Source: Candidatus Saccharimonadales bacterium | GTDB taxonomy: Bacteria; Patescibacteriota; Saccharimonadia; Saccharimonadales; DASZAF01 | Assembly: GCA_035945435.1 (NCBI GenBank) | Contig: DASZAF010000031.1 | Span: 17,913-81,912 of the forward strand | DNA: 64,000 nt | Direction of reading: 5' to 3' | Part shown: piece by piece, positions 29,138-36,977 of the stretch | Position numbering within the stretch: the stretch's first letter is position 1 | Layout: the number at the start of each line of letters is the position of its first letter | The notes under the pieces: generated by a model | Database searches by the model: none | Told to the model about the DNA's origin: nothing | What the model saw: the letters and a program-made list of their open reading frames with translations, nothing else | Position numbers and translations under genes: made by a program

Positions 29138-31468
29138 TTATTTTTTAGATTTGGTAGTCGATTTGGCTCGTCTGCGGGTTCTCTTTTTAGGAGCAGCTTT
29201 GGCGTCTTTGAGAAGCTCAGCGGCTTCTTTTTCGGTTATCTTCTCGGGGTCGGTCTCTTTGGGGACGTGAGCGTTCTTGGTGCCGTCGGTCACGTAGGGG
29301 CCGAACCGACCTCTGAGAATCTTGATCTTGCCGAAGTCGGCGATGACCCGTTGGGCCTGAAGCTCCTCTTTGGCTTTGAGGTGCTCGAGGACGGTCTCGA
29401 GGTCAACGGTGTAAGGATCCTCGTCTTTAAGAGAGACAGTCTCCTTGCCGACTCGCGCATAGGGACCAAACCGGCCACTTGTGACGATCACATCGTCGCC
29501 TGACGGACTCTTCCCGACGGTCCGCGGCAGAACGAGTAGCTCGAGGGCCTGCTCGAGAGTGATGGTGTCGACCGATAGCTCGGGCGGAATAGAGGCAAAG
29601 TGAGGTTTCTCTTCATCCTCGCTCTCACCTGCCTGAACCATTGGCCCGAATCTACCAAGCCGAGCGGAGACGATCCTCCCTGTTTTAGGATCCTTGCCGA
29701 GTTCGCGTGTCTTGGTCGTTTCGGCGCGCGTCAGTTCTCCTGCTGCTTCTATGGTCTTATGGAACGGTCCGTAGAAGGCCTTCAGCATAGCCTCTCGTTT
29801 CTCTTTGCCGTCGGCGATCTTGTCGAACTCCTCTTCGACGTCGGCTGTAAAGTCGTAGTCGACGATCTTATCGAAGTGGTCGTTTAGGAAGCCGTTGACG
29901 ATCGATCCGCTGGCCGTTGGGATCAGCTTGCCCTTGTCTGAGCCGGTATTCTCGACTTCGGTGGTAGTTGTGACGGTGCCGTCTCTGAAGATGAGTTGTT
30001 GGAACGGCCTCTCAACCCCCTCGCTGATCCCCTTGGTAACGTATTCACGAGTCTGGATGGTCGAAATAATCGTCGCGTAGGTGCTTGGTCGGCCGATACC
30101 GAGTTCCTCGAGTTTTTTAACGAGGCTTCCTTCGGTGTAGCGGGCCGGAGGTCGGCTGAAGATCTGTCTTGAGACCGCCTCTTTCAGGCTGATCTTCTCC
30201 TTGACCTGAATCTTGGGCAGAAGCACCTCTTCTTTCTTGATGATGTCACCGTAGACCTTTAGGAAACCGTCAAATAGAACTATCTCGCCCTTGGCTTCGA
30301 AGAGTTCCTTGCGGGTTGAGATGGTGATAGTGATGGTCGTTCTCTCGAGCTGCGCAGGGGTCATCTGAGACGCCAGTGTGCGGCGGCGGATAAGGTCGTA
30401 GAGCTTCTGCTCTGTCGCATCGTCGCTGGCGTGTGTAACTTTGACGTCTACTGGGCGGATGGCCTCATGGGCCTCTTGAGCATTGATCGACTTCGTCTTA
30501 AAGACGCGGGTCTGCGAGTACTTCTGACCGTACTCTTTGGCGATGTACTCCTGCATGGCCTTGATAGCGATCGGGCTCAAATTGACTGAGTCGGTGCGCA
30601 TGTAGGTGATCTTACCGGCTTGGTAGAGCCGCTGGGCGGCAGTCATGGTCCGTTTGACCGAGTAGCCGAGGCGGCTGGCCGCTTCCTGCTGCAATGTCGA
30701 GGTCGTAAACGGCGCGTTCGGATTGCGAGTTCCCGGCGTGGTGGCGATGTCACTGATAGTAAAGGTGGCTCCTTTGAGGGCCTCCAGAAATGTCTGGGCT
30801 TTCTTCTCGGTGTCGAACTTGGTGTTGAGCTCGGCAGGCAAAGCGTCCTTGGTCTTCAGGACGAAATCGGCGGTCGTCTTATAACTGATCTCTGGTTTGA
30901 AGTCCTTGATCTCATTTTCGCGTTCTACGATCAGCCGAACGGCTGGCGACTGGACGCGTCCGGCCGAACGTCCGCCCGGGACTTTTCGTTGAACCACCGG
31001 AGAGAGCTCAAAACCGACAAGTCGGTCAAGGATACGACGAGCTTGCTGAGCGTCAACCAGATCAAAGTCGATCGTCCGGGGGTGTTCAAGGGCCTCTTCA
31101 ATAGCTGGCTTGGTAATCTCGTGAACAACGATACGTGGTGTCGTCTTGGGATCAAGACCGAGTACCTGGGTAAGATGCCAGGCTATCGCCTCTCCTTCAC
31201 GGTCACCATCAGTTGCTAGGTAAACTTTCTTGTTACCCTTGATGGCCTTCTTCAGGTCGGCGATGATGGCCTTCTTCTCGGGGTCAATCTCGTAAGTTGG
31301 CTCAAAGCCGTGGGCTATATCGATCGGGGGCTTCCCGCCCTTAGTCTTCTTGGTGGGGATGTCCCGAATATGGCCCACACTTGAGAGCACGTCGAAGTCC
31401 TTACCCAAGAACCGTTCAATCGTTTTTGCTTTTGAAGGTGACTCAACAATGATTACGTTTTTCGCCAT
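29138..31468 (-). CDS. topA: DNA topoisomerase I
   Basis: Toprim N-terminus MAKNVIIVESPSKAKTIERFLG and a TopoIA core. The C-terminal domain has three GRFGP(Y/M) repeats, no Cys, and a Lys/Arg tail. Confidence 0.95.
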   Translation of the reverse strand: MAKNVIIVESPSKAKTIERFLGKDFDVLSSVGHIRDIPTKKTKGGKPPIDIAHGFEPTYEIDPEKKAIIADLKKAIKGNKKVYLATDGDREGEAIAWHLTQVLGLDPKTTPRIVVHEITKPAIEEALEHPRTIDFDLVDAQQARRILDRLVGFELSPVVQRKVPGGRSAGRVQSPAVRLIVERENEIKDFKPEISYKTTADFVLKTKDALPAELNTKFDTEKKAQTFLEALKGATFTISDIATTPGTRNPNAPFTTSTLQQEAASRLGYSVKRTMTAAQRLYQAGKITYMRTDSVNLSPIAIKAMQEYIAKEYGQKYSQTRVFKTKSINAQEAHEAIRPVDVKVTHASDDATEQKLYDLIRRRTLASQMTPAQLERTTITITISTRKELFEAKGEIVLFDGFLKVYGDIIKKEEVLLPKIQVKEKISLKEAVSRQIFSRPPARYTEGSLVKKLEELGIGRPSTYATIISTIQTREYVTKGISEGVERPFQQLIFRDGTVTTTTEVENTGSDKGKLIPTASGSIVNGFLNDHFDKIVDYDFTADVEEEFDKIADGKEKREAMLKAFYGPFHKTIEAAGELTRAETTKTRELGKDPKTGRIVSARLGRFGPMVQAGESEDEEKPHFASIPPELSVDTITLEQALELLVLPRTVGKSPSGDDVIVTSGRFGPYARVGKETVSLKDEDPYTVDLETVLEHLKAKEELQAQRVIADFGKIKILRGRFGPYVTDGTKNAHVPKETDPEKITEKEAAELLKDAKAAPKKRTRRRAKSTTKSKK

Positions 31469-31600: not shown

Positions 31601-32350
31601 TTGTCTGATATGGTGCTCGTCATCACACGAGTGGTATCTAAAATGGTAACGGAGCGTGGAATGATTGCCCCCTTTCAAGAAACAGCGATGGTAAGTGACA
31701 GGCACAATGTAGCCGTGTTCTCTGTCACTGAAGCGCGAGATGTTGCCATGGGACGTGATGTGCTCCGTTGTCTGGGCGCCGGTGATACGAGCCGACTTGT
31801 CTTTAGTGAGTTGGCGACAAATGCACTCGGAAAGCCTGATGAGCTCGGTGATGCCCAACTTGCTGCAGAGCTTGCCTCTCTCGGAATCGAAGCACCCGTG
31901 CCTCCTCTGCCCAGAACGGCTACTGAAGCCTCCACTCAACTTGGCTGTCTTGTAACCGCCGATGTTATTAGGCCTCCTGCGGCCATTACGACTATGCAGG
32001 TTACCAGCCCACTTGATGAGAGGACGCTGCGACGCCTGCGTTCTGATCTTGCTGCTGCTCGGAGAGCAAAGCTCGAAAGACAGACCAGGCCTGCTGTTAA
32101 GCCTGCTGTTAAGAAAGATGACCCGGAAGCTGACAAGCGGGCTCAATTAGCCGGCGAGCAGCTTGGTCGCCGTGGCTTGAGGCTTGTCGTTGAGTTGAGT
32201 CACGAGGTGACCACCCGTGCTCTACGAGGCCCGGACGGCCAAGTGATTGGAGTTGTCATAGATGTACTAGTCTTTGACCCCGTGGACGATGAGCCCGTTG
32301 CAGCTGCTAAGAGTGCACAGACTATGATGCCGGTTCGTGTCGCAGCCTAA
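31601..32350 (+). CDS. Hypothetical protein (about 247 aa), Ala/Arg/Val-rich
   Basis: The plus-frame ORF is protein-like while the overlapping minus ORF 31598..32146 is Ser/Arg-rich antisense-type. ATG at 31610 is an alternative start. Tandem PAVKPAVK. Confidence 0.5.
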   Translation: MSDMVLVITRVVSKMVTERGMIAPFQETAMVSDRHNVAVFSVTEARDVAMGRDVLRCLGAGDTSRLVFSELATNALGKPDELGDAQLAAELASLGIEAPVPPLPRTATEASTQLGCLVTADVIRPPAAITTMQVTSPLDERTLRRLRSDLAAARRAKLERQTRPAVKPAVKKDDPEADKRAQLAGEQLGRRGLRLVVELSHEVTTRALRGPDGQVIGVVIDVLVFDPVDDEPVAAAKSAQTMMPVRVAA

Positions 32351-32479
32351 TCTACGCATTACTTACACATCTATAATGCAATCGTATCTCAGTATTACAA
32401 GTGACATTCGACTTCTGTAAAAGTGCTTAACCTTACTATATTCAATATTGAATTTGTCTAATAAATATTCAAATAGTTA

Positions 32480-32508
32480 TTGACATAAATAGAACACAGT
32501 GTTAATAT
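32480..32508 (+). promoter_or_regulatory. Sigma70-type promoter of the candidate sRNA/leader
   Basis: TTGACA-N17-TAATAT with a TGt extended -10. The palindrome AACACAGTGTT (32493-32503) lies in the spacer. Confidence 0.6.
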
Positions 32509-32514
32509 ACACGC

Positions 32515-32787
32515 GGTAAGCACGATTTAAGTTGCTTATGCACCTTATACCCCCCAATTCTAACTTATGTTAGATTGCATGCAACGTGCGCTCGACAAAG
32601 TATCCCTCCACTTATCTTGCGCGGTAGGTACCTCTTAATTGAGATGCCAAACATGCGTTGCTTGCAAACTAACCCCTTTAACCAAACGATCCTATTATAT
32701 CGAGTATGAGGTGGTCGTCATGCCCTACATGGGTGGGTTAAAGGGTCTAGAGTGCCCAGTAGTGCCCACCCCTACTGGGCACTTTTG
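32515..32787 (+). ncRNA. Candidate ~270-nt structured RNA or terminator-controlled leader (unclassified)
   Basis: Bounded by the promoter at 32480-32508 and the terminator at 32751-32787. Internal stems 32517-22/32533-38, 32560-64/32569-73 and 32576-86/32656-66 (10 of 11 bp). No match to the tmRNA, RNase P, SRP or T-box motifs I can recall. Confidence 0.4.
32751..32787 (+). terminator. Rho-independent terminator
   Basis: Perfect 12-bp stem AGTGCCCAGTAG/CTACTGGGCACT, 9-nt loop, then TTTTGATTT. Confidence 0.65.
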
Positions 32788-33363: not shown

Positions 33364-33933
33364 TTAAACTTTGGCCGTATCTGCTAGCAGTGAGTCGTTA
33401 AGGAACTTATCTATCAGTGAAGCCACATGGCTTTTTATACTATCCATCTGCTTCATCTCTTCGGGGTTAAAGCGCGCCAGGACGAACTGCTCAGCCGGCT
33501 CAGAGCTACTCTGTTCATTGGCTATGCCGCAGCGGATACGCAGAAAGTCTTCCCCGATAGATTGAGATACAGAGAGCACCCCCTTATTGCCGGCGTGCGA
33601 TCCTCCTAGACGGGTTCGGATCGTCCCGAATGGGAGGTCAAGTTCATCGTGAACGACTAAAATCTGGCCATTATCTAACTTATAGAAGTCTTTAATTGCC
33701 CTTACGGCCTTGCCAGAATTGTTCATGTAGGTCGTTGGCTTGATGCATACAAGACGGTTGTCATCTTGCTGGGTCTCGGCTACGAAGGCATCAAACTTCG
33801 GCCTCTCCTGCCAGACTAGGCTATGTTCGGCGGCATACTCGTCAAGACAGATGAACCCGACATTGTGTCTCGTCCCTTGATACATCTGACCTATATTGCC
33901 AAGACCGACTATGAGCTTAATCTTTTGCGGCAC
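33364..33933 (-). CDS. pth: Peptidyl-tRNA hydrolase
   Basis: KLIVGLGNIG..Y.GTRHNVGF signature. Start set to GTG 33933 (MPQKIKLIVGLGN). The track's ATG 34008 would overlap der by 92 nt. Confidence 0.85.
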   Translation of the reverse strand: MPQKIKLIVGLGNIGQMYQGTRHNVGFICLDEYAAEHSLVWQERPKFDAFVAETQQDDNRLVCIKPTTYMNNSGKAVRAIKDFYKLDNGQILVVHDELDLPFGTIRTRLGGSHAGNKGVLSVSQSIGEDFLRIRCGIANEQSSSEPAEQFVLARFNPEEMKQMDSIKSHVASLIDKFLNDSLLADTAKV

Positions 33934-35263
33934 GATACGGGTGCTCCTTTTCGTCTTTGGTGTCTCTAAAGAATAGTTTAATGGGTGTGCCAGTAAAGTC
34001 GAATGCATCTCGGAGCCGTCTTTCGAGCTGACGGCGGCTGCTCCAGTGTAAGAACTTGGTATTATTGCCGAAGATGCTGAAGTATGGAGGCCCAGTATCC
34101 GTCTGCGTTATGTAGCGAAGACGAGGTGGCCGGTTTCTGAAACCGACGGGGCTGTGCGCTTTAGTGGTTTCCTGTAGTATGCGGTTTAACTGGGAAGTTG
34201 GGATGACACGCTTGCGTCGCTCATCTATCTCTGTAGCTATGTCTAGAAGCTTGGTCACGTTTTGACCTGTAACTGCACTGGTGAAGATGAGTGGTGCCCA
34301 GGGTACAAAACTGAACTCACTACTTACCTTCGCGGTGATCGTGCCGTGGGTGTGTGTATCTTTCTCGAAACTGTCCCACTTAGTCACGACGATGATAAGC
34401 CCTCTGCCAGCTTCCTTAATGATGCCCGCTAACTTCTGATCGAGGGCAACATTCAATTCGTTGACATCCATGAGAAGAAGACAGACATCGGCTGATTCTA
34501 TGGCTTGCAGGGTCCTCAGAACGCTAAACTTCTCAATCCCCTGCTCTATCTTACCGCTTCGTCTGACTCCGGCTGTGTCGAGAAGCTCGACTGTTCGCTG
34601 GTGATACTTAATATCTACATGGCCGATATCCCGTGTGGTCCCCGCCTTTTGTGAGACCAAGGCCTGCTGTTTACCAGCCAGCGCATTAAAGAGGCTTGAT
34701 TTACCAACGTTAGGACGGCCGATGAGGGCAATACTGAGGGTATTCGTACGATCGATTGCTTGCTTCTTGGGAATATGCTCGACGATGGCGTCACATAACT
34801 CGCCAGTACCCCTGTTGTGATGGGCTGACGTTCGGATAATCACCTTGACACCAAGGCGTAGGAACTCACTGTTATCAAGCGCGCCACCCTTATCTACTTT
34901 GTTGATAACAAGGATGACGGGCTTTCTCGACTTAAGGGCTTGTTTAGCGACTTGCTTATCCTCATCACTCGGATAGAGATCTGCCTCAACCATTACTAAG
35001 ATGACGTCCGCATTCTCAGCGGCGTCAGTAATCTGGTCCTGGATGGTGGCTTCAAACTCATCTTCGGCTCGCTTGAGCCCGGCAGTGTCAACCAACCAGA
35101 AGTGGTAGCCATCGTGCTCAACCTGCCCAACGACAGGATCACGCGTGGTCCCCGGTTCCCTAGCGACAATAGCCTGCTGACCTCCTACGAGGCGATTAAA
35201 GAGGCTTGATTTACCAACATTGGTACGACCAACGATTGCAACAGTGGGCAGTGTCGTTGCCAT
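33917..35263 (-). CDS. der: Ribosome-associated GTPase Der/EngA
   Basis: Two G domains (GRTNVGKSSLFN and GRPNVGKSSLFN) plus a KH-like C-terminus. Confidence 0.95.
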   Translation of the reverse strand: MATTLPTVAIVGRTNVGKSSLFNRLVGGQQAIVAREPGTTRDPVVGQVEHDGYHFWLVDTAGLKRAEDEFEATIQDQITDAAENADVILVMVEADLYPSDEDKQVAKQALKSRKPVILVINKVDKGGALDNSEFLRLGVKVIIRTSAHHNRGTGELCDAIVEHIPKKQAIDRTNTLSIALIGRPNVGKSSLFNALAGKQQALVSQKAGTTRDIGHVDIKYHQRTVELLDTAGVRRSGKIEQGIEKFSVLRTLQAIESADVCLLLMDVNELNVALDQKLAGIIKEAGRGLIIVVTKWDSFEKDTHTHGTITAKVSSEFSFVPWAPLIFTSAVTGQNVTKLLDIATEIDERRKRVIPTSQLNRILQETTKAHSPVGFRNRPPRLRYITQTDTGPPYFSIFGNNTKFLHWSSRRQLERRLRDAFDFTGTPIKLFFRDTKDEKEHPYRAAKD

Positions 35264-35308: not shown

Positions 35309-36049
35309 CTATTTGGCCGAACTATGGTCGATCTCTTTGAGCTCGTTGTCGACAAGGACGTGGAAGGTGCGACCGTGAAGCTGGTCAATTGACCAGGGCC
35401 CAAACTCAATACGGTGGAGACGGACAACCGTATAACCAAGTGCGGCAAACGTCCGTCTGATCTGCCGATTACGTCCTTCACTCATGGTAACCCGCCATTC
35501 ACGCCGATCACCTCCAGGCATTTCTTCCAGGCCCAGTACGCTCTGGCCGTCGGCCAGTTCGACCCCGTTAGTAGTGATAGTTTTCTGATGAGCTGGGTCT
35601 AGTGGCCGATCCAATAGCGTGATATATGATTTCTGCTTTCCAAAACGGGGATGTGTCAGCTGGAGCGCCAAGTCACCGTCGTTCGTCATAAGGAGTAGAC
35701 CCGACGTATCTTTGTCGAGCCGCCCGACAGTCTTGAGGTGTTGGTATTCATCTGGCAACAGTTCGTAGACGGTTGGCGTATCACCCTGCTTTGCCCGGCT
35801 GCTGACGTAACCGATCGGCTTATCCAGCAGCACATAAACGAGTGGCGCCTTTTTCGAGCTGATCGTCTGCCCGTCGACGATAACACTGTCGAGCGCACTG
35901 ACCCGCTGGCCGAGTCGTGCCTGTTCGCCGTTGACTTGGACGTGCCTGCGTTCAATAAGCTCATCCGCTTGGCGTCTACCAATGCCGAGGTGGGCGGCCA
36001 GCATCTTGTTTAAGCGTTCTGAGCTATCTTGGAGATCGGTGTCAGACAT
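35309..36049 (-). CDS. Pseudouridine synthase, RsuA/RluB family (S4 domain + catalytic domain)
   Basis: S4 region LNKMLAAHLGIGRRQADELI and catalytic GRLDKDTSGLLLMTNDG. Start set to M30 (ATG 36049), an 8-nt overlap with the upstream gene. Confidence 0.85.
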   Translation of the reverse strand: MSDTDLQDSSERLNKMLAAHLGIGRRQADELIERRHVQVNGEQARLGQRVSALDSVIVDGQTISSKKAPLVYVLLDKPIGYVSSRAKQGDTPTVYELLPDEYQHLKTVGRLDKDTSGLLLMTNDGDLALQLTHPRFGKQKSYITLLDRPLDPAHQKTITTNGVELADGQSVLGLEEMPGGDRREWRVTMSEGRNRQIRRTFAALGYTVVRLHRIEFGPWSIDQLHGRTFHVLVDNELKEIDHSSAK

Positions 36050-36977
36050 TTGGTACGACTGGTGGTGCGGGGGCGGCTGGAGCGACGGCTGCGGCCGGTG
36101 TTGGGAGATTAGGAATGACAGGCGCAGAGGGCTCACCTCGAGTAGGAGTGCCTGCAGTAACAGGGCTTAGCTCTGAGGCAGACGGTGGTGCCGATGGGGC
36201 AGCTGGTGGCGGAGTGGTGATCGGAATAGGAGTTGCACTGGCCCCACCCTCCTTCTGCTCTTCCTTATCAAGTAATGCCTGAATATCAATCTTGCTCTTG
36301 CTTATGTCGTTAAGTGGCTGGATGATCCGTTGTCGTCTCGATGGCGGTTCCTCATCCTCATCGTCATCGGAGGAGTCAGTCGGCGGTGGGACTGGCGGCG
36401 GCGTAGGGATCGGTGTCACGGCTGGTGGCGGAGTTGGTGTAGGTGTCGGCGGAGTGACTGGAGCTGGGTCTGGAGTGGGAGTGGCCGGTGGAGTTACGGG
36501 ACCAGGCGTAGCGGGTACGGCTGGAGCAGCGGGAGTACTTGGCGGAGTTGGTGTAGGTGTCGGCGCGGGAGGCGTAGAAGGTGCAGCCGGGGTTGCTCCT
36601 TGTGCTGGCCTATCACCAAGGACTTCATGCACAACGTGGACAACATCCTCAATCCCCACCTGTGACTTGACAAGGTATCTGTCAGCACCGAGTCGTTCAC
36701 CGCGGGTCTTATTCTCTTCTGAGCCGAGGGCACTCATCATGATCACCTTGATGTTCTTCGTCTCAGTTGTTGAGCGCAAGATATCGAGCATATCAAAGCC
36801 ACTGATCTTGGGCATCATGATGTCGGTGATGATCAGCGTGGGCCGTTCTTTAATGGCCATGGCTAGGGCTTGTTCGCCATCACCGGCGGAGACGATGTCA
36901 TAACCCTCGGCCAGAAGGCGTACCCCATAAATTTCCCGGAGGCTTGTATCATCCTCGACAAGCAATATTTTTGTCAT
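36042..36977 (-). CDS. Response regulator: receiver domain plus ~190-aa Pro/Thr/Ala-rich tail, no recognisable output domain
   Basis: MTKILLVEDD...IITDIMMPKISGFD receiver, then PAAPSTPPAPTPTPTPP... low-complexity sequence and an acidic patch DSSDDDEDEE. Confidence 0.8.
   Translation of the reverse strand: MTKILLVEDDTSLREIYGVRLLAEGYDIVSAGDGEQALAMAIKERPTLIITDIMMPKISGFDMLDILRSTTETKNIKVIMMSALGSEENKTRGERLGADRYLVKSQVGIEDVVHVVHEVLGDRPAQGATPAAPSTPPAPTPTPTPPSTPAAPAVPATPGPVTPPATPTPDPAPVTPPTPTPTPPPAVTPIPTPPPVPPPTDSSDDDEDEEPPSRRQRIIQPLNDISKSKIDIQALLDKEEQKEGGASATPIPITTPPPAAPSAPPSASELSPVTAGTPTRGEPSAPVIPNLPTPAAAVAPAAPAPPVVPNV
36426..36565. repeat. 26-nt exact direct repeat inside the Pro/Thr-rich tail of the response regulator
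   Basis: TGGCGGAGTTGGTGTAGGTGTCGGCG at 36426-36451 and 36540-36565, 114 nt (38 codons) apart and in frame. Confidence 0.75.

Follow-up and report, generated by a model that had tools for sequence, protein, structure and literature searches.

The window analysed here is a stretch of 64,000 nucleotides (nt) from a Candidatus Saccharimonadales bacterium (contig DASZAF010000031.1, positions 17,913 to 81,912 of the forward strand), and this work concerns an RNA gene placed on its plus strand at 32515-32787 by nhmmer and covariance-model matches, with one copy per locus. The interval 32480-32787, which holds the gene and its promoter, lies within a 484-nt gap separating two open reading frames (ORFs) without known relatives, both on the plus strand (31601-32350 upstream; 32835/32844-33362 downstream, named ORF175 below). 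Farther out, topA (29138-31468, minus strand) is found on the upstream side of the RNA, and pth (33364-34008, minus strand), then der and rluB, on the downstream side. A preliminary description of the interval had suggested either a stand-alone small RNA (sRNA) or a riboregulatory leader. Considering both the structure and the arrangement of its homologues, we propose that it is very probably the stand-alone gene of a non-coding RNA, conserved and highly structured, in the Saccharibacteria, at least within the order Saccharimonadales.

Transcription would start from the gene's own near-consensus sigma-70-type promoter with an extended -10 element (32480-32508, plus strand), composed of a -35 box TTGACA (32480-85), a 17-nt spacer, the extended -10 TG (32500-01) and TAATAT (32503-08). 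This promoter, already pointed out in the preliminary description, scored 10/12 with the TG in our scan, and the transcription start probably lies near 32515. The pattern TTGAC(A/T/G)-N(16-17)-TAnnnT was recovered in 79/79 distinct homologous upstream regions, with the extended -10 TG in 78 and a 17-nt spacer in 77 of them, and the distance from the end of the -10 box to the GCACC block of the RNA body is fixed (median 34 nt). The transcript would end at its own intrinsic terminator, called P6 (32750-32786, plus strand), which comprises a stem (32750-62/32772-84), a 9-nt loop UGCCCACCC (32763-71, C-rich element 3) and a T-run (32783-86). Because the 9-nt loop is invariant, the terminator hairpin would double as a functional part of the RNA. 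The numbers of promoter-like sites (9 versus 7.5 +/- 2.6 expected) and terminator-like sites (10 versus 9.0 +/- 3.5 expected) in the 10-kb neighbourhood are not above chance.

Homologues were collected with Pth as an anchor and with a sequence pattern. The first anchor sample consisted of four Saccharibacteria-type reference metagenome-assembled genomes (MAGs) with Pth 43-51% identical, one record being labelled Nomurabacteria; an intergenic homologue adjoins pth in 4/4 of them (L001-L004), on the strand converging on pth, with nhmmer E-values of 5e-14 to 6e-6. The pattern used on metagenomes was made of two conserved 3' blocks, GGTGNGTTNAAGGG, a gap and TGCCCACCC, and matched at least 120 contigs; the 124 RNA-carrying loci, and the counts drawn from them, are mostly among the metagenome matches listed. 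A second anchor sample, meant as unbiased, was built from nine more Pth homologues on long contigs and gave 10 loci and one source-genome locus. The RNA is present in 11/11 of these (nhmmer E-values 2e-66 to 4e-9), and the strict pattern also matched 11/11. The GGUGGGUU block and the terminator loop are the elements demanded by the metagenome pattern, and the invariance of GGTGNGTTNAAGGG and TGCCCACCC is unbiased only in the 13 pth-anchored loci; in these loci, which were not picked by loop sequence, the terminator loop is constant in 13/13.

A covariance model named R1, based on 18 short-form sequences and 228 positions with P1 left out, gave 99 matches, one per RNA-carrying locus, of which 97 cover the full model and two are partial (L099 and L013). 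It gave no match in L005 (Clostridia), the one locus from outside the candidate phyla radiation (CPR). In the window, R1 scored 164.7 bits (E = 2e-42) over 32540-32783, and no second copy of the RNA was found in the 64 kb. Four weak matches on the reverse strand, e.g. window 32569-32673 on the minus strand with 19.8 bits, lie on helix P3 and were rejected as real copies, as they mirror this near-palindromic helix. The RNA measures about 272 nt in the window and 250 to about 530 nt among the homologues, and it is retained in lineages that share no more than 35-58% identity in Pth. The Pth of the window is 99% identical to that of one Candidatus Saccharimonadales MAG and at most 58% identical to all other Pth homologues, so the window comes from a lineage that stands apart within the Saccharibacteria (Patescibacteria/CPR). 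Nothing points to a mobile or phage origin: the scan of viral contigs with the RNA pattern gave 0 matches, and blastn of the intergenic region against phage records gave only 40-nt AT-rich chance matches.

The gene order in the 124 RNA-carrying loci is topA and dprA on the opposite strand, the RNA, then convergent pth, der and rluB. Within the limits that contig ends set on detection, the numbers of loci with a match were 63 for topA, 71 for pth, 48 for der and 23 for rluB. Of the 63 loci with a topA match, 60 have the gene upstream on the strand opposite to the RNA, and of the 71 with a pth match, 70 have it downstream and convergent (exceptions in order or orientation: L038, L061 and L112 for topA; L042 for pth and der). 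In 83 loci the immediate upstream neighbour is a 285-amino-acid (aa) protein, divergent every time, identified as DprA (Pfam PF02481). On the other side, the 3' end of the convergent pth is merely 27-80 nt past the terminator in many genomes, so that the RNA has nothing to regulate in cis there. Where same-strand ORFs do occur 3' of the RNA, they fall into clusters that are unrelated between genomes and mostly singletons, and some of them are probably antisense shadows of pth. The window itself is atypical twice, being without dprA at this site and having ORF175 inserted ahead of pth.

The predicted fold of the RNA in the window has an energy of -98.1 kcal/mol (z = -5.8, 0/200 shuffles equal); the minus strand gave z = -4.9, since any helix-rich region scores on both strands. 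The RNA folds into a 5' hairpin P1, a long helix P2'/P3 that closes a three-way junction with P3a and P3b, a long-range helix P4 around a domain that can expand (P5 and others), and P6, the hairpin of the terminator. In the R1 alignment, whose 99 distinct sequences were fitted to the model structure and which hence favours that structure, a standard pair is present in 90.0% of the cells, versus 71.8% after shuffling and 36-49% when partners are slid by 1-3 columns. The covariation score of the same alignment is 0.407, versus 0.148 after shuffling (0/500 shuffles reach 0.407) and 0.073 or less after sliding, and 49 of the 64 modelled pairs have changed on both sides in a compensatory way. An alignment not fitted to the model points to the same 5' structure: 60 5' domains aligned with plain MAFFT and analysed with RNAalifold yield P2'/P3 with 14/17 pairs compensated. 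This procedure failed for P1, P2 and P3a on account of indel misalignment, and anchor-based single-sequence folding and the covariance model were used instead. Single-sequence folding gave P1 in 57/57, P3a in 73/78 and the terminator hairpin in 99/99 distinct sequences, with stem sequences that differ widely. Many pairs are G.U where A.C would stand on the opposite strand, which, together with the promoter and the terminator, fixes the plus strand as the functional one. Variable insertions sit at helix tips, namely in the CUAAC...GUUAG loop, in P3b and between the P4 strands.

At the 5' end, P1 (32517-32538, plus strand) pairs TAAGCA (32517-22) with TGCTTA (32533-38); in the 57 homologues it has at least 5 base pairs (bp), very different stem sequences and a mean energy of -9.2 versus -4.9 kcal/mol for shuffled sequences. 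It is followed by C-rich element 1 (32540-32559, plus strand), GCACCUUAUACCCCC(C/U)AAUU, which is invariant or at least 90% conserved in three alignments and is placed in a single strand, no internal pairing partner having been found for this block. Next comes a small hairpin (32560-32573, plus strand) in which X, CTAAC (32560-64), pairs with Y, GTTAG (32569-73), across a TTAT loop that holds an inserted variable hairpin in several genomes. The X-Y pairing is compensated in L026, L110 and L042. Y can pair as well with Z, CTAAC (32669-73), in the P2'/P3 domain (32569-32673, plus strand), which closes the three-way junction. P3 (32575-87/32655-67, and 32588-91/32619-22, plus strand) continues the Y-Z helix, and the Y-Z pairing lengthens P3 to a helix of about 19 bp. 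The three stems drawn at this end in the preliminary description, 32517-22/32533-38, 32560-64/32569-73 and 32576-86/32656-66, are thus all present, as P1, X-Y and P3, and we add to them the Y-Z pairing, P3a with its C-rich loop (32598-613) and P4 (32674-83/32736-45), which it had not listed.

R1 helices 1-3, which cover the P2'/P3 domain, are 94-99% paired, with 15/16 pairs changed on both sides. Double changes in Y-Z occur in L042, L038/L061 and L085, and one Y-Z pair is GC in 89 sequences, with AU, CG and UA each found in 2. The two pairings of Y differ by about 1.6 kcal/mol on average, Y-Z being favoured in 58/81 sequences. GUUAG with its two mutually exclusive CUAAC partners may correspond to a folding intermediate in an ordered pathway or to a genuine switch.

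Within the P3 domain, the P3a hairpin (32598-32613, plus strand) pairs AAGT (32598-601) with ACTT (32610-13) and exposes the loop AUCCCUCC, consensus CUACCCUCC, which is C-rich element 2. It forms in 73 of 78 distinct homologues, its stem has compensatory variants (AAGU/ACUU, AGG/CCU, UUAGU/ACUAA), and the ACCCTCC motif is found in 87/90 sequences. The fold prediction for the window includes in addition a variable hairpin P3b (32627-32648, plus strand), GGTACCTC/GAGATGCC; it is absent or of other length elsewhere, and the region is gapped or variable in three alignments.

The long-range helix P4 (32674-32745, plus strand) joins CCCTTTAACC (32674-83) to GGTTAAAGGG (32736-45) and encloses the variable domain. 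In its conserved form (CCCUUUAAC/GUURAAGGG), the 9/9 modelled pairs are 100% paired; seven are constant and one is U-A in 33 and U.G in 62 sequences. Inside it, the P5 hairpin (32686-32718, plus strand; 32686-700/32704-18) belongs to R1 helices 8-10, which are 77-91% paired with 13/13 pairs changed on both sides, and its stem versions interchange, e.g. AGCG-GAC-CUC/GAG..GUC-A-CGCU versus AGCG-AAC-AUCU/AGAU-C-GUU-A-CGCU. Long-form homologues have a larger domain at the position of P5. Read by eye, these long forms (e.g. L011, L015 and L016) have an extra domain of 100-150 nt between the P4 strands, with its own conserved motif GAYGCUUCRCU and an apparent covarying helix, AGUGA/UCACU in some of them and AGCGA/UCGCU or AAGAG/CUUCUU in others. 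P5 also holds the start (32706) of the 11-codon mini-ORF (32706-41) that had been noted in the preliminary description; this mini-ORF exists in the window and is not conserved, falling in the variable domain.

Downstream of P5, a mini-hairpin (GCCC 32722-25/GGGT 32731-34) overlaps a G-rich element, GGGTGGG (32731-37), the two spanning 32722-32737 on the plus strand. The mini-hairpin (32722-34) is restricted to short-form homologues, R1 helix 11 being 65.8% paired. GGUGGG is found in 10/13 pth-anchored loci, and L002-L004 have GGUGCG. The preliminary description had read this segment as the 5' arm of an antiterminator, 32721-37 pairing with 32765-81 and thereby excluding the terminator. The complementarity is real (inverted repeat I5, 76%), and GGGUGG can pair with CCACCC of the terminator loop in 95% of the cells; its second arm, TGCCC/GGGCA, is specific to the window, and the part found in homologues involves the loop only, so the supposed exclusion of the terminator did not hold. 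No covariation was seen over the six pairs, which are broken in 11 and 15 cells at two positions. Such a contact, which would use loop nucleotides only, would be a pseudoknot or a kissing interaction that leaves the terminator stem intact. This stem, given as 12 bp with a T-run in the preliminary description, has 12-13 bp, and in homologues the P6 hairpin has a mean energy of -23.3 versus -8.9 kcal/mol for shuffled sequences; R1 helix 12, which corresponds to it, is 97% paired with 11/12 pairs changed on both sides.

About 70 positions of the alignments, lying in linkers, junctions and loops, vary little or not at all. They comprise the linker GCACCUUAUACCCCCUAUUCUAAC, GUUAG, the P3a loop CUACCCUCC, ACUAAY-CCCUUUAAC, GGGUGGGUURAAGGG and the 9-nt terminator loop UGCCCACCC. 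Three invariant stretches are both C-rich and unpaired in the model, namely UAUACCCCCUAUU, loop CUACCCUCC and loop UGCCCACCC.

This RNA matches none of the families that we searched for. With Rfam 15, no match was obtained in the window at the gathering threshold or at E <= 10, and in 22 homologous loci (14 searched at E <= 5, 8 at the gathering threshold) the matches were limited to tRNAs, a single one in the set of 8, and to chance matches such as mir-3151 and SSRC34_2 that fall on the hairpin of the terminator and were discarded. The families without a match in the window and homologous loci include raiA, OLE, ROOL, GOLLD, HEARO, T-box, RsaE, 6S, RNase P RNA and signal recognition particle (SRP) RNA, in agreement with the novelty proposed in the preliminary description and with its failure to recognise a transfer-messenger RNA (tmRNA), RNase P, SRP or 6S signature. 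ARAGORN likewise found no tmRNA in the window and 30 loci, and a tmRNA match in L022 (12.8 bits, E = 0.19) was rejected, being nearly all upstream of the RNA body and ending at its first nucleotides. Among 90 sequences, the tmRNA marks GGTTCGA (T-loop) and 3' CCACCA were found in none, the RNase P marks GAAAGTC (conserved region I, CR-I) in none and ACAGAA (CR-V) in two, and the SRP marks GGAAG.AGC (domain IV) in two and CC[GA]GAAGG (GGAA-tetraloop pattern) in none; GGTGAAA occurred in 8/90 in the same scan of signature motifs. A coding function was also rejected, as the short ORFs of 44 aa, 49 aa and 11 codons run across compensated helices and indels not divisible by three. In the literature on non-coding RNAs of Saccharibacteria and Patescibacteria, we found no description of this RNA, in a survey whose coverage is incomplete, so that this absence is no proof.

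The leader reading of the preliminary description would make the interval a leader or attenuator of ORF175, with read-through via the antiterminator 32721-37/32765-81 and perhaps control by a ligand or by the Trp codons of the mini-ORF. The complementary segments do exist in the window, the GGGUGG/CCACCC pairing is possible in 95% of the cells, and here a same-strand ORF follows that was called as a gene in the source assembly. We consider this reading very improbable, however: the convergent pth end leaves little room after the terminator in many genomes, the same-strand followers are unrelated, and ORF175 has neither a Pfam family nor relatives in species-representative genomes. There is no conservation of the arm meant to open the stem, the contact that is conserved reaches only the loop and shows no compensation, an invariant terminator loop is unusual for an expression platform, and the mini-ORF lies in the variable P5 region, where length changes break its frame. 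Synteny and the unrelated downstream ORFs thus remove the leader or attenuator and support the stand-alone gene, which keeps its conserved promoter and terminator even where nothing follows on the same strand. Less credible still, and hardly worth retaining, is that selection acts on DNA-level elements only, i.e. a dprA-topA control region (bidirectional promoter, operators) together with a bidirectional terminator shared with pth. Such elements would fit the dprA start close to the -35 box, the palindromic -35 regions of many loci, which suggest back-to-back promoters, and the A-tract upstream of the terminator, which could let it act both ways. They do not explain why conservation reaches at least 250 nt past the promoter, why helices keep pairing via double substitutions and G.U pairs, an RNA-level signature, why the window genome, without dprA here, still keeps the entire RNA, or why the RNA has kept its own terminator where other genes separate it from pth.

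A very divergent 6S, RNase P, tmRNA or SRP RNA, missed by the Rfam models in a lineage with reduced genomes, would share the typical traits of a single-copy, class-wide, strongly promoted RNA of 250-530 nt with expansions at helix tips. RNAs of the CPR are often atypical, and our sequences cover the syntenic neighbourhood, so that canonical RNAs encoded elsewhere fall outside their scope. This identity nevertheless appears highly unlikely to us, given the empty Rfam searches even at E <= 10 with permissive filters, the negative ARAGORN results for the window and 30 loci, and the motif counts (GAAAGUC, GGUUCGA, CCACCA and CC[GA]GAAGG 0/90; GGAAG.AGC 2/90). In addition, the RNA ends in separate local hairpins, P1 and P6, its ends are unpaired with each other and its body is multi-domain; the covariation-supported P1 and P6 hold the ends apart, unlike in 6S, SRP, RNase P and tmRNA. 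A base-pairing sRNA, which would be a sub-variant of the stand-alone RNA gene that we favour, stands better, as a possible if unlikely case: its C-rich loops (the CCUCC of P3a and the terminator loop) would pair with G-rich ribosome-binding regions in several mRNAs and so repress their translation. C-rich loops are the seeds of RsaE/RoxS and of RNAIII hairpins 7, 13 and 14, and the RNA has three invariant exposed C-rich elements, two in apical loops (one of them the terminator's) and one in a linker, with the internal GGGUGGG as a potential built-in decoy. On the other side, the invariant blocks of 12-24 nt are longer and more numerous than a seed needs, conservation across lineages with such divergent Pth proteins and a complex multi-domain structure are both atypical of these sRNAs, the available 1 Mb or so holds no excess of complementary sites, and Shine-Dalgarno use seems weak. 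This last point comes from a noisy survey of the window only, in which several genes are apparently leaderless.

The comparison shows that the locus keeps its place, promoter, terminator and secondary structure and that it matches no known family; for the stand-alone structured RNA, we infer that it most likely acts in trans as a folded RNA of the housekeeping type and, likewise, what its partner may be. The covarying helices that tolerate insertions at their tips would form a scaffold, and the invariant C-rich single strands would offer a contact surface to a conserved cellular partner. The bistable pairing of GUUAG with two CUAAC copies may gate the exposure of this surface, and pairing of the internal GGGUGGG with the terminator loop may do so as well. 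Among possible modes of action, the core of a ribonucleoprotein (RNP) or a protein-sequestering RNA comes close to an even chance in our judgement. Pairing of the C-rich elements with G-rich RNA, in the manner of RsaE/RoxS or RNAIII, is rather unlikely, and a ligand-binding, catalytic or other RNA slightly more so. Indeed, the pattern of invariant junctions and loops, insertion-tolerant tips, breadth and promoter resembles 6S, OLE, raiA, SRP and RNase P RNAs more closely than base-pairing sRNAs. Going further, we suggest with reserve, as a conceivable though on the whole doubtful reading, that the RNA is the core of a hitherto undescribed, lineage-wide housekeeping RNP, or a functional RNA that folds by itself, confined to Saccharibacteria or perhaps extending to other Patescibacteria.

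Several points weigh against the stand-alone structured RNA gene as a whole. That the gene is transcribed, where its product begins and ends and at which level it is expressed are deduced from sequence only. Most homologues were found by a pattern that demands GGTGNGTTNAAGGG and TGCCCACCC, and the alignment behind the R1 pair counts was itself fitted to the modelled structure. P4 agrees with the data but, like the contact between the terminator loop and GGGUGG, is not proven by covariation. Complements of the three C-rich elements occur at or below chance in about 1 Mb of neighbouring sequence. Finally, the loci represent the syntenic neighbourhood only, and separate RNase P, tmRNA, SRP and 6S genes elsewhere in these genomes lie outside this scope.

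Comparison with known systems places the RNA in the neighbourhood of several of them. RsaE/RoxS of Bacillales and RNAIII of Staphylococcus are alike in being stand-alone genes with their own promoter and intrinsic terminator and in having several exposed C-rich motifs, one in the terminator loop and one with an anti-Shine-Dalgarno-like CCUCC. The Saccharibacteria RNA differs from them in its larger size, three-way junction, long-range helix and expandable domain, in having no Rfam match, in its far more numerous invariant nucleotides conserved order- or class-wide, and in that no mRNA targets were found in about 1 Mb. Like the raiA motif RNA, OLE and ROOL/GOLLD, it is lineage-restricted and widespread there, 250-530 nt long, with many invariant nucleotides in junctions and loops, covarying helices and possible pseudoknots, and it is self-contained with its own terminator and a function not evident from the context. 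The present RNA, in contrast, has no Rfam match, is hosted by Patescibacteria/Saccharibacteria instead of Bacillota or Actinomycetota, and occupies a fixed dprA-pth position in single copy. With 6S RNA and Ms1 it shares a single-copy gene, a strong constitutive-looking promoter and a similar size, and it is plausibly, like them, an abundant protein-binding housekeeping RNA; 6S, however, is a rod formed by pairing of its 5' and 3' ends around a central bubble, whereas the Saccharibacteria RNA has separate end hairpins and a three-domain body. Terminating riboswitches and attenuators have in common with it the succession of promoter, structured RNA and intrinsic terminator, a pairing that touches the terminator and, here, the bistable GUUAG helix. 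They differ in that the Saccharibacteria RNA has no conserved downstream gene, its terminator loop is invariant, and its alternative pairing spares the terminator stem and lacks covariation.

The RNA appears to be an undescribed, lineage-wide structured family and a new class among the orphan structured bacterial non-coding RNAs. Its presence in single copy, at one position and in every sampled lineage, with about 70 invariant nucleotides and a consensus-like promoter, suggests an important role in the cell. Genomes are tiny in Saccharibacteria and other Patescibacteria, and few regulators can be recognised in them. [quoted passage not shown] If it is the core of a housekeeping RNP, or a functional RNA that folds by itself, its place would be beside 6S, OLE or raiA, and what it does might be tied to the reduced-genome, epibiotic lifestyle, e.g. 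through global control of translation or competence; the GUUAG switch and the pairing of GGGUGGG with the terminator loop would then be built-in conformational gates. Southlakia epibionticum and Nanosynbacter lyticus can now be cultivated, take up DNA by natural transformation and lend themselves to transposon sequencing (Tn-seq; PMC10633639), and with such Saccharibacteria the RNA is directly testable.

The spacer between dprA and the RNA has features of its own. In most genomes the dprA start codon is about 25 nt from the -35 box of the RNA (e.g. L007:3830-3900, L020:11740-11810), the window counterpart of this region being about 32400-32485. The -35 region is palindromic (TTGACA...TGTCAA) in 37/79 upstream regions, and a TAATAT-like -10 box, read by eye from the alignment, lies on the dprA strand 5-7 nt ahead of the ATG. 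Judging from these elements, the spacer resembles a compact bidirectional promoter of back-to-back design, from which dprA would be transcribed as a leaderless mRNA. Inside the RNA gene, a minus-strand promoter-like match (ATGACG-N16-TATAAT, 32694-32721, 10/12) falls in the variable domain and is probably due to chance.

In the window, tblastn found no copy of dprA anywhere in the 64 kb. The upstream ORF (31601-32350) encodes 249 aa, and its sole Pfam match is sub-threshold (DUF6284, E = 0.018, 15.5 bits versus a cut-off of 27.4); it has no counterpart among the 124 related loci and occupies the space between topA and the RNA. ORF175 encodes 175 aa and was called as a 172-aa gene in the source assembly; it has no Pfam match and no relatives in species-representative genomes. 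In L001, L056, L093, L103, L122, L129, L134 and the window, the space between the terminator and pth contains unrelated ORFs of 80-370 aa without a family, and this space looks like a hot spot of lineage-specific gene insertion. As regards annotation, gene callers in several assemblies put short hypothetical ORFs beside the RNA: ORFs without a Pfam family are called between the RNA and pth at L130:8617-8958, L135:8979-9104, L136:8954-9211 and L137:8580-8882, none of which clearly overlaps the RNA as placed by nhmmer and R1.

The longest ORF of pth in the window (214 aa) shares 92 nt (33917-34008) with the end of der; the NCBI and Logan calls start downstream and give a protein of 189 aa, which is probably the true start. 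Further on, positions 36042-36977 encode a response-regulator receiver protein with a Pro/Thr/Ala-rich low-complexity C-terminal tail of about 190 aa. The block of histidine kinase, response regulator, rluB, der and pth that adjoins the RNA is conserved in related genomes.

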